Shown: positions 30,340 to 31,277 of the stretch, one piece after another
How the letters are laid out: every line of letters begins with the position of its first letter
Numbering within the stretch: the stretch's first letter is position 1
Origin: Chloroflexota bacterium
GTDB taxonomy: Bacteria > Chloroflexota > Dehalococcoidia > SM23-28-2 > RBG-16-64-32
Direction of reading: 5' to 3'
Assembly (NCBI GenBank): GCA_037441345.1
Contig: JBBISJ010000002.1
Location: 103,403-167,402, forward strand
Length of the DNA: 64,000 nt
Translations under genes and position numbers: made by a program
The notes under the pieces: model-generated
Told to the model about the DNA's origin: nothing
The model's database searches: none
The model's input: only the letters and a program-made list of their open reading frames with translations

Positions 30340-31245
30340 GTGTCCGGCATTCTCAACGTCGACAAGCCGCGCGGCCCCACCTCTTTCGACATCGTTCGGG
30401 CTGTTCGCCGCGGCACCGGCGAGAAGCGGGTTGGCCACGCCGGCGCGCTCGACCCTGCGGCAAGCGGGGTGCTGCTGGTGCTCCTGGAGCAGGCAACCCG
30501 CATCACCGAGTACTTGATGGACCTGCCTAAGGTCTACAGGGCTGTGGTTCGCCTCGGGGTGACGACGACAACGTACGATACCGAAGGCGACGTCACCGCG
30601 CAGCGGGATGTGGAAGTGTCTGAGATGGAAGTGAAGCACACCCTCACGACATTCGCCGGCGAAATCCTGCAAACGCCTCCGGCCTTCAGCGCGCTCAAGA
30701 TCGGCGGCGAGCCAGCCTACAGGGCAGCACGCCGCGGCGAGGCCGTCGAGATGACACCACGGCCCGTGCGCATCTACCGGACCGATCTCCTGGCATTCAA
30801 TCCTCCAGACGCGGAGATCGAAGTTGAGTGCGGGCGCGGGACGTACATCCGCAGCCTGGCCCACGACCTTGGACAAGCGCTGGGCTGCGGCGCACACCTC
30901 GCTGATCTCGAACGCGTGGAGATCGGACCTTTCAGCGTCGCGCAAGCAGTCAGCATGTCAAACCTGGAGTCAGGGTTCGCGGACGGCACCTGGCGGCGGT
31001 TTGTACAGCCGATCGATTCCGGGCTAGCGCTCCTCCCTGTGCTTCACGCATCACGCGACGAAGAGAATGCGCTCCGTCACGGTCAGGCCGCCGGGTTGGA
31101 GACCAATGCCGGCGAGGCGCGCGCTCAACCCGCGGACGGACTGGAGGCGCGCGCTCAATCCGCGGACGGTTTGCTCATCGGCATTGTCCGTTTTGACCAG
31201 GAAACCGGTCTATGGCGCCCCCGCAAGATATTCGCTGGTGCCTAG
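30340..31245 (+). CDS. truB: tRNA pseudouridine(55) synthase
   Basis: VDKPRG.TS, GHAGALDP, PPAFSALK, CGRGTYIRSL. Confidence 0.95.
   Translation: MSGILNVDKPRGPTSFDIVRAVRRGTGEKRVGHAGALDPAASGVLLVLLEQATRITEYLMDLPKVYRAVVRLGVTTTTYDTEGDVTAQRDVEVSEMEVKHTLTTFAGEILQTPPAFSALKIGGEPAYRAARRGEAVEMTPRPVRIYRTDLLAFNPPDAEIEVECGRGTYIRSLAHDLGQALGCGAHLADLERVEIGPFSVAQAVSMSNLESGFADGTWRRFVQPIDSGLALLPVLHASRDEENALRHGQAAGLETNAGEARAQPADGLEARAQSADGLLIGIVRFDQETGLWRPRKIFAGA
31114..31173 (+). repeat. In-frame 30-bp tandem duplication inside truB
   Basis: Encodes EARAQPADGL/EARAQSADGL. Confidence 0.75.
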
Positions 31246-31271
31246 CATTCAACGAAATTTTCGTTTAGACT
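31243..31271 (+). promoter_or_regulatory. Predicted sigma-70-type promoter with a perfect palindromic operator in the spacer
   Basis: TAGCAT (31243-48), 17-nt spacer, TAGACT (31266-71); AACGAAA-T-TTTCGTT at 31251-31265; GTG start 6 nt after the -10. Confidence 0.6.
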
Positions 31272-31277
31272 CATGGC

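Follow-up and report, generated by a model that had tools for sequence, protein, structure and literature searches.

A conserved palindrome before Chloroflexota genes encoding a helix-turn-helix-Ino1 fusion is a probable autoregulatory operator

In the trigger enzymes BirA, NadR, PutA, and RbkR, a DNA-binding domain is fused to a metabolic enzyme of the pathway under its control, and palindromic operators lie upstream of the enzyme's own gene or of pathway genes. The DNA-binding module is a winged helix in BirA and RbkR, a ribbon-helix-helix in PutA, and an XRE-type helix-turn-helix (HTH) in NadR. In phages, Cro dimers bind pseudo-palindromic operators of ~17-18 bp that overlap promoters, and they repress by occlusion. 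RbkR was recognized by comparative genomics, through palindromes of 16-20 bp located before the genes of winged HTH-enzyme fusions (PMC5397151). Inositol-1-phosphate synthase carries out the committed step for inositol lipids. To our knowledge, the control of its gene, ino1, is largely unknown in bacteria outside the Actinobacteria, and IpsA is the only characterized regulator of a bacterial ino1 gene. IpsA, which is of the LacI type, regulates ino1 in Corynebacterium and Mycobacterium and recognizes a palindromic site in the ino1 promoter, with myo-inositol as the effector (PMC3899939). It is required for ino1 expression, acting as an activator, and has several targets and a motif with a central CG (PMC3899939). 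Here, we analyzed a 64,000-nucleotide stretch of a Chloroflexota bacterium assembly (contig JBBISJ010000002.1, positions 103,403 to 167,402), referred to below as the window, and examined a perfect palindrome located directly before a gene in which an HTH domain is fused to Ino1. Comparison with orthologous loci indicates that this palindrome is probably the operator of the HTH-ino1 gene and that it serves in negative autoregulation by promoter occlusion.

The palindrome, AACGAAA-T-TTTCGTT, is located at positions 31251-31265 of the window and is perfect over 7+1+7 bases (AACGAAA, 31251-31257; T, 31258; TTTCGTT, 31259-31265). It lies in the 32-bp intergenic gap (31246-31277) that separates truB from the 506-amino-acid (aa) HTH-Ino1 open reading frame (ORF; 31278-32798, forward strand), whose GTG codon is the first possible start. 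The region reads tgcc-TAG-cat-t-C-AACGAAA-T-TTTCGTT-T-AGACT-catggc-GTG. An initial annotation of the window had given the palindrome at these coordinates, in a gap of this length and within a 17-nt spacer between TAGCAT and TAGACT, all of which were correct. The local GC content at the palindrome was 0.52, compared with 0.60-0.77 in the flanks. The 15-mer occurred once in the window with three mismatches tolerated, and in a scan with a position matrix built from orthologous sites, the site scored 21.4 and the runner-up position in the 64 kb scored 4.7. The orthologous sites suggest a functional unit slightly longer than the one first described, a 17-bp candidate operator, CAACGAAATTTTCGTTT, at 31250-31266 with the perfect core at 31251-31265. 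The consensus of the family is TAACGAA-N3-TTCGTTA.

The distribution of the fusion was examined in the 120 best homologues from a collection of 5.8 billion proteins. These proteins were ~490-543 aa in length, mostly 505-543 aa, with a few shorter ones and some labelled partial, and the matches covered 95-100% of the query. The fusion architecture was kept in all 120 and in 18 genome loci. The named homologues among the 120 belonged to Dehalococcoidia or Thermomicrobiales and were annotated just as inositol-phosphate synthase, and precomputed Pfam assignments listed an HTH for one of the 120. A scan of a genome collection gave 80 best loci, of which 19 were listed as fused (18 of them truly fused) and 61 as unfused. 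Fused copies were found in Dehalococcoidia, Tepidiformales, Ktedonobacterales, Thermomicrobiales, Chloroflexia, and SAR202 bins. The unfused copies were from Gemmatimonadota, Actinomycetota, and Acidobacteriota, and they start at approximately residue 70 of the query. All Chloroflexota ino1 copies among these 80 loci were fused.

The fused genes were preceded by the dyad-symmetric 17-bp motif. When upstream regions were scanned with three or fewer mismatches allowed in the 14 defined positions, the motif was found in 16 of the 19 loci listed as fused and in none of the 61 unfused ino1 loci; the chance of such a match in a shuffled 150-nt upstream region was 0.5%. Furthermore, when the matrix was run over whole loci of ~7.5 kb, the top score of the entire locus was directly upstream of the fused gene in 18 of 18 truly fused loci, and in 13 of them it stood at -27 to -30 from the start codon, usually at 28 nt. 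In the same scan of 50 unfused ino1 loci, all upstream scores stayed below 10, and every position in the 350 kb scored below 15. The TAACGAA and GTTA positions carried 1.5-2.0 bits of information, the three centre positions 0.8-1.0 bits, and most flanking positions 0-0.5 bits. The initial annotation had regarded the palindrome as the binding site of the fused HTH, giving direct autoregulation, and had proposed phylogenetic footprinting as a check. The footprint obtained, with the palindrome before every true fusion and before none of the unfused genes in either scan, supports that proposal on comparative grounds; physical binding and the sign of regulation are what we infer from it.

A search in the opposite direction started from the site. 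Metagenome contigs were scanned for exact copies of TAACGAAWWWTTCGTTA, and at least 120 stretches were obtained. In 21 of the 120 stretches listed, the start of an HTH(-Ino1) gene followed 20-50 nt downstream, in the right orientation and with the same -35/-10 layout. In contigs with a GC content of 60% or more, 17 of 18 exact copies stood just before an HTH(-Ino1) start. The other 99 of the 120 stretches listed were not beside an HTH-Ino1 start, and nearly all of them were in contigs of less than 57% GC, where the 17-mer is expected by chance because it is AT-rich. These 99 matches, together with how often low-GC DNA contains short palindromes rich in AT, are what can be said for regarding the window site as an AT-rich sequence that arose by chance in a short gap between genes. 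A chance of ~0.5% per locus, set against a site at a fixed position in all 18 truly fused loci, effectively refutes this explanation, to which we assign a negligible probability.

The surroundings of the site in the orthologues were those of a promoter. The layout was TTGACA, TTGCAT, or TTGACT, followed by 2-3 nt, the palindrome, a -10 element of the form TAnnnT, 5-9 nt, and ATG, GTG, or TTG. The palindrome's last TA doubles as the first TA of TAnnnT, whose final T carried 1.7 bits, and TAnnnT was found after every orthologous palindrome; the arrangement TTGACA/TTGCAT-17-TAnnnT was clear and conserved. In the subclade of the window, the -10 element is shifted by one base (TAGACT; TACTAT and TATGAT in the nearest relatives), and the start codon follows 6 nt on. 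The putative -35 element of the window, TAGCAT (31243-31248, forward strand), overlaps the truB stop codon TAG (31243-31245) and is weak, with 3 of 6 bases of TTGACA. It lies 17 nt 5' of the putative -10 element, TAGACT (31266-31271, forward strand), whose first base also ends the candidate operator. Because, in loci without a leader, the -10 element ends 5-9 nt before the start codon and leaves no room for a Shine-Dalgarno sequence, transcription probably starts at or beside the first base of the start codon, giving a leaderless mRNA. In the window, the GTG codon (31278-31280), 6 nt from the -10 element, would then be the transcription start, as judged from geometry only.

Variants of this layout were also observed. 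In L004, the leader is ~35 nt. In L006 (2900-3000), there are two complete tandem promoter-operator units 29 bp apart. In L032 (2860-2990), from SAR202, a promoter-embedded operator is located ~126 nt upstream of the start codon, representing a leadered variant, and a second, weaker site, CAACAAAAATACAGTTA, is located just before the start codon with a Shine-Dalgarno-like GAGG.

Since the palindrome is directly 3' of the truB stop codon and is able to form a 6-bp hairpin, a structural role in RNA or DNA, as a truB terminator or attenuator, has to be weighed, as does that of a plain AT-rich promoter spacer. A terminator scan at the palindrome detected none, the stem being AT-rich and without a T-run. 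The predicted RNA hairpin (-7.3 kcal/mol, z = 0.58) was no better than that of shuffled sequence. The terminator or RNA-hairpin reading was rejected on these grounds, and the initial annotation had likewise held that the palindrome is not a terminator. In addition, most site-bearing loci lack truB upstream. Only the closest relatives (L001, L210, L096, L140, L181, and L184) have truB ahead of the fusion, and among the 19 genome loci, the combined truB and lipid-gene synteny of the window was found in L001 only. Because the other fused loci have no truB upstream, it is the fused gene, rather than truB, that the palindrome accompanies. Among the nearest relatives, L210, which shares the truB synteny, carries CAACGAAGTTTTCGTTT, and L209, in another neighbourhood, carries TAACGAATTTTTCGTTT. 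Finally, base-specific conservation of the dyad (1.5-2 bits) versus the centre (0.8-1.0 bits) fits a dimer site, not a stem. A structural or plain spacer role is thus very improbable.

We then considered the protein as the reader of the site. A single ORF without an internal stop codon holds both a DNA-binding and a catalytic domain. The catalytic part (aa 79-506; 31512-32798, forward strand) matched the two Pfam domains of the Ino1/MIPS family, NAD_binding_5 (PF07994; E = 1.8e-94, 317 bits with a cut-off of 25, positions 1-321 of the 321 in the model) and Inos-1-P_synth (PF01658; E = 2.5e-34, 118 bits with a cut-off of 27), which together span aa 80-487. Both matches are above the gathering threshold and place the protein in this family. 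The catalytic part is 71-80% identical to the unfused Ino1 of Gemmatimonadota and Actinomycetota, with many invariant alignment columns, and is a putative NAD-dependent synthase converting glucose-6-phosphate to inositol-3-phosphate. The HTH module occupies aa 1-66 (31278-31475, forward strand). It is followed by a short linker (aa 67-78; 31476-31511, forward strand), where alignment columns are variable compared with the flanks and the predicted local distance difference test (pLDDT) score is low at aa 66-72.

The HTH module resembles phage Cro proteins. The full ORF gave weak, sub-threshold matches to YdaS_toxin and P22_Cro at aa 9-44, and the HTH domain alone scored 25.2 bits with YdaS (PF15943; cut-off 30) and 22.8 bits with P22_Cro (PF14549; cut-off 30.2). 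All 17 orthologous HTHs matched both models, with best E-values of 3.4e-7 and 4.1e-6, respectively. A profile built from the 17 sequences matched solved Cro structures, with E-values of 5.3e-7 for 3bd1 (Xfaso 1 Cro), 4.1e-6 for 5w8y, and 0.003 for 2pij (Pfl 6 Cro); the proteins matched include XPH1 and, weakly, P22 Cro. The alignment spans helices 1-3 and the GRIPA motif. The AlphaFold2 (AF2) model of aa 1-71 (pLDDT 87) is all-helical, with helices at aa 7-14, 18-25, 29-38, 43-56, and 62-65. Its best Foldseek matches were Xfaso 1 Cro (3bd1; probability 1.00, template modelling score 0.60-0.67), N15 Cro, for which a structure of the DNA complex exists, and P22 Cro, with E-values of only 0.01-1.6 for this small domain. 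By profile and predicted fold, the N-terminal domain is a Cro-like all-alpha HTH, which agrees with the comparison to Cro-type dimers made in the initial annotation. The predicted recognition helix is R28-Q-S-T-I-E-H-W35. In the alignments made, Q29, S30, T31, H34, and W35 were invariant and R28 nearly so, and this invariance appears to parallel the conserved half-site.

No covariation signal was observed between the recognition helix and the operator variants, most helix residues being invariant among the fusions. A tentative pairing of Arg28 with the CG of TAACG, drawn from a comparison of HTH-MEDS proteins with Gly or Ser at this residue, fell when more loci were included; L205, L211, and L213 carry TAACGAAAA whatever residue 28 is, and L014 combines Gly28 with TAACGAA.

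Beyond the fusions, the same HTH was found on other proteins. When the 78-aa HTH was used as the query of an exhaustive HMMER search, 491 representative proteins were found. The module, xFGGQSALAxLxGKxQSTVxHWxKxGxIPAxW, was N-terminal in proteins with differing C-terminal parts, besides fragments of the fusion, and precomputed Pfam listed an HTH for few of the proteins carrying it. One of the C-terminal parts is the MEDS domain (PF14417), as assigned by precomputed Pfam. In 10 independent HTH-MEDS genes (L201, L202, L204-L207, and L211-L214), the best match of the locus to the Ino1-operator matrix was located 42-89 nt upstream. The shuffle tail was 0.004 or less in seven of these loci and 0.026 or less in the other three. 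The sites were usually paired at about -82 and -60, 22 bp apart; examples are TAACATAAATTATGTTA, TAACGAAAATATTAGTA, AAACAAAATTTTCGTTC, and TACCGGATATTCTGGTA, and the pair in L204 consists of TAACATAAATTATGTTA followed by CAACCATTAAAACCGTTA. Because HTH-MEDS genes share only the HTH with the ino1 fusions, the motif follows the HTH and not ino1. The paired sites suggest cooperative autoregulation in a second family with this HTH, and the palindromes of this family are the strongest available argument that the HTH itself, rather than an ino1-specific factor, would read the palindrome. Other C-terminal parts, recognized by eye, were P63C-like, metallo-beta-lactamase-like, RhuM-like, and Mrr-like, and the module was also seen as 4-5 tandem copies within single proteins (by-eye cases with other domains or tandem copies: P0152, P0158, P0249, P0270, P0191, P0192, P0216, P0229, P0187, and P0231).

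A natural loss was found in Plantactinospora endophytica NBRC 110450 (L022, 2900-3260). The region before the Ino1 core is collinear with the HTH, which has decayed through a TAG codon for Gln18, a TGA codon for Trp45, and a frameshift before the GIVLEA motif. The operator was absent, the best matrix score in this locus being 0.2. At the corresponding upstream position, there is a different perfect palindrome, GATGTATC-N5-GATACATC. The collinearity implies that this actinomycete ino1 descends from a fused gene, possibly by horizontal transfer.

The HTH-MEDS and Plantactinospora cases bear on the idea that a separate, trans-acting regulator of Chloroflexota binds the operator, with the fused HTH acting elsewhere or in non-specific association with the nucleoid. 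Co-occurrence alone is compatible with a phylum-specific regulator, as all sites are from one phylum, and the known control of bacterial ino1 uses a separate protein, the LacI-type IpsA (PMC3899939). Against such a factor, HTH-MEDS genes, which have the HTH alone in common with the ino1 fusions, are also preceded by related palindromes, and decay of the HTH in L022 goes with a missing site. Furthermore, the site had no second copy in the window, and it was likewise unique in each locus examined, as would be the case for a dedicated autoregulator, and the invariant residues Q29, S30, T31, H34, and W35 stand alongside the conserved half-site. A separate regulator is therefore an improbable reading, and we favour binding by the fused HTH. 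Of other known operators, the LexA/Cheo, Fur, and CRP boxes were compared informally with the site, which does not fit their patterns.

For negative autoregulation by the HTH-Ino1 protein, the following mechanism can be proposed. Two HTH domains of an enzyme oligomer would bind TAACGAA and TTCGTTA, half-sites with roughly one helical turn between their centres. As the 17-nt spacer is filled by the site, which also overlaps the -10 element of a putative sigma-70-type promoter, the bound protein would exclude RNA polymerase. Occlusion by operators placed in this way is established for LacI, LexA, and lambda Cro/CI. In this way, ino1 and the co-transcribed genes for phosphatidylinositol lipids would come under negative autoregulation. 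Read-through from truB may add to expression in this genome, in which case the bound protein would also act as a roadblock. The linker between the HTH (aa 1-66) and the Rossmann fold is only ~12 residues, so the pairing of the HTHs would depend on the quaternary structure of the enzyme; MIPS enzymes are tetramers. The enzyme body would probably be the sensor, responding to substrate, product, NAD state, or oligomeric geometry, as in trigger enzymes; modulation of DNA binding by a metabolite is plausible by analogy with BirA, PutA, NadR, and RbkR (PMC5397151).

Several observations weigh against this interpretation. The hexamers of the window are weak (~7 of 12 consensus positions) and a consensus promoter scan of the window was negative, so the promoter reading rests on the orthologues. 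The placement of the palindrome between two hexamers, described in the initial annotation, recurs in these orthologues. Public reads with the window sequence came from DNA runs of subsurface metagenomes only, in a search that was not restricted to RNA. Two fused loci, L013 and L016, have degenerate sites with scores of 13. The HTH is below the curated Pfam gathering scores for YdaS and P22_Cro, and this was true for all 17 orthologues. The full-length AF2 model, from a shallow alignment, is poor (pLDDT 60), and the placement of the HTH on the enzyme is unreadable in it; that two HTHs of one oligomer reach both half-sites is an assumption. Finally, the fused genes are all from Chloroflexota, with the addition of L030, which was binned as Acidobacteriota, and the unfused controls are all from other phyla. 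The contrast between fused and unfused genes is confounded with phylogeny because the two sets come from different phyla. The HTH-MEDS and Plantactinospora cases reduce this confound and do not remove it.

The weak hexamers also bear on the sign of regulation. The fused HTH could bind and activate, or act in both directions, for example, to offset the weak -35 element. The poor -35 element and the lack of a detected consensus promoter in the window are in keeping with activation, and some bifunctional regulators, such as RbkR, have been inferred to be activators from the position of their sites (PMC5397151). The site, however, lies in the spacer and over the -10 element, where the site of a class I or class II activator would instead be upstream of the -35 element. 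Moreover, most orthologues have a near-consensus TTGACA and TAnnnT and should need no activator. We regard activation as unlikely and repression by occlusion as the probable mode.

An operator-like 17-mer, TACCGAAAAATTCATTA, was also observed inside the coding region, at +698 to +710 (aa ~237-242, S-T-E-K-F-I), in a subclade of the Dehalococcoidia type (L007, L008, L010, L011, L012, L014, L015, and L016), with matrix scores of up to 17.1. It is kept through the codons ACC GAA AAA TTC ATT, which are rare in these genes (gene-wide usage in L014: AAA, 0.04; ATT, 0.08), and neighbouring codons vary freely at third positions. The window has GAG ATC TTC CTG at the equivalent position and no such site. 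The internal 17-mer may be an auxiliary operator for DNA looping. A more far-reaching reading combines a metabolite-sensing HTH-Ino1 repressor, possible bridging of two operators, and a wider family of autoregulators with TAAC-N9-GTTA sites. In this combined form, the geometry of the paired HTHs would depend on whether glucose-6-phosphate, inositol-3-phosphate, or NAD(H) is bound, and the oligomer could bridge two operators like tetrameric LacI, which the internal TACCGAAAAATTCATTA and the twin sites of L006 would fit. The module would then join Ino1, MEDS, P63C-like, metallo-beta-lactamase-like, RhuM-like, and Mrr-like domains. Taken as a whole, this combination is speculative and rather doubtful.

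The genes around the fused gene in the window were assigned with Pfam. Upstream, truB, encoding tRNA pseudouridine synthase B (30340-31245, forward strand; TruB_N and TruB_C_2), ends a nusA-infB-rbfA-truB block. Near its 3' end (31114-31173), there is an in-frame 30-nt tandem duplication encoding EARAQPADGL and EARAQSADGL, with copies differing at 4 bases. Downstream, on the forward strand, the fused gene is followed by genes for a lipid A-type acyltransferase (32817-33728), a PHP-domain protein (33737-34495), a GT4 mannosyltransferase-like protein (34495-35619), and a CDP-alcohol phosphatidyltransferase (35619-36236). The gaps in the block 32817-36236 are 18 and 8 nt, followed by two 1-nt stop/start overlaps, between the PHP and GT4 genes (34493-34497) and between the GT4 and CDP-alcohol phosphatidyltransferase genes (35617-35621), each apparently TGATG. 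The short gaps and 1-base overlaps suggest that ino1 through the phosphatidyltransferase gene form one translationally coupled operon, and the genes at 32817-36236 are probably co-transcribed. The downstream genes look like a lipid operon of the phosphatidylinositol or phosphatidylinositol mannoside type. The matrix scan detected no second operator-like site within or between the downstream genes (32817-36236).

Two further loci contained pieces of the system. In L209 (4356-4524), a separate ORF corresponding to the last ~56 residues of Ino1 is located ~1.3 kb 3' of the fused gene, following a TetR-family gene and a DUF6326 gene; a partial duplication seems to have left it behind. In L198, a metagenome contig of 1.6 kb, the region at 1150-1570 carries the operator and the first ~25 HTH codons, out of frame with the middle of an inositol-monophosphatase-like gene (DPIxGT motif), and the N-terminal part of an inositol-monophosphatase-like gene is on the opposite strand. 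We rejected L198 as a new fusion and regard the contig as probably chimeric or rearranged. In this organism, the enzyme that acts next in inositol synthesis may nonetheless be a neighbour.

A full-text literature search, whose coverage excludes most subscription journals, found no description of the HTH-MIPS fusion or of its operator. The DNA-binding domain is missed by current annotation, which labels the protein as inositol-3-phosphate synthase only. If the proposed autoregulation is correct, Chloroflexota, including SAR202 and Dehalococcoidia, which are abundant in soil, subsurface, and marine environments, build the control of ino1 into the enzyme itself, and a lipid-precursor enzyme joins the short list of trigger enzymes. 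It would also provide a clear comparative example of a repressor site within a leaderless promoter, and a defined, easily tested operator-protein pair that might serve as a compact self-regulating part. A wider family is suggested by the attachment of the same HTH, with related operators, to other domains.

Compared with trigger enzymes, the concept of which is already established, the fusion analyzed here represents a phylum-wide and currently unannotated case. As in BirA, NadR, PutA, and RbkR, both domains are in one polypeptide, a conserved operator-like site is present at the enzyme's own gene, and autoregulation is inferred. The fusion differs in its enzyme, since Ino1 is an NAD-dependent lipid-precursor enzyme and the trigger enzymes named in PMC5397151 belong to the metabolism of vitamins, cofactors, or amino acids. 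It also differs in its Cro-like all-alpha HTH, which is distinct from the DNA-binding modules of the other trigger enzymes, and in its putative target, seemingly a single promoter giving a leaderless mRNA. Of the phage Cro proteins, Xfaso 1 (3bd1), N15 (2hin/6on0), and P22 (1rzs) were the best profile and fold matches to aa 1-66, and like Cro operators, the putative 17-bp operator overlaps the -10 element. Unlike phage Cro, the module forms the N-terminal part of a chromosomal enzyme of 506 aa, whose oligomerization would presumably provide the dimer; the operator sequence is not known to be related to those of lambda and P22. HTH-MEDS proteins (DcmR-like, PF14417) have the same type of HTH, ~50-58% identical and with the same QSTxQHW helix, and related 17-bp TAAC...GTTA palindromes upstream of their own genes. 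They differ in having a C-terminal sensory domain rather than an enzyme, sites placed 42-89 nt upstream and mostly in 22-bp pairs, and leadered mRNAs. With IpsA, the locus shares the control, here putative, of a bacterial ino1 gene and hence of inositol-derived lipids through a palindrome in the promoter. Unlike IpsA, the putative regulator is built into the enzyme and probably represses, and its motif is unrelated.

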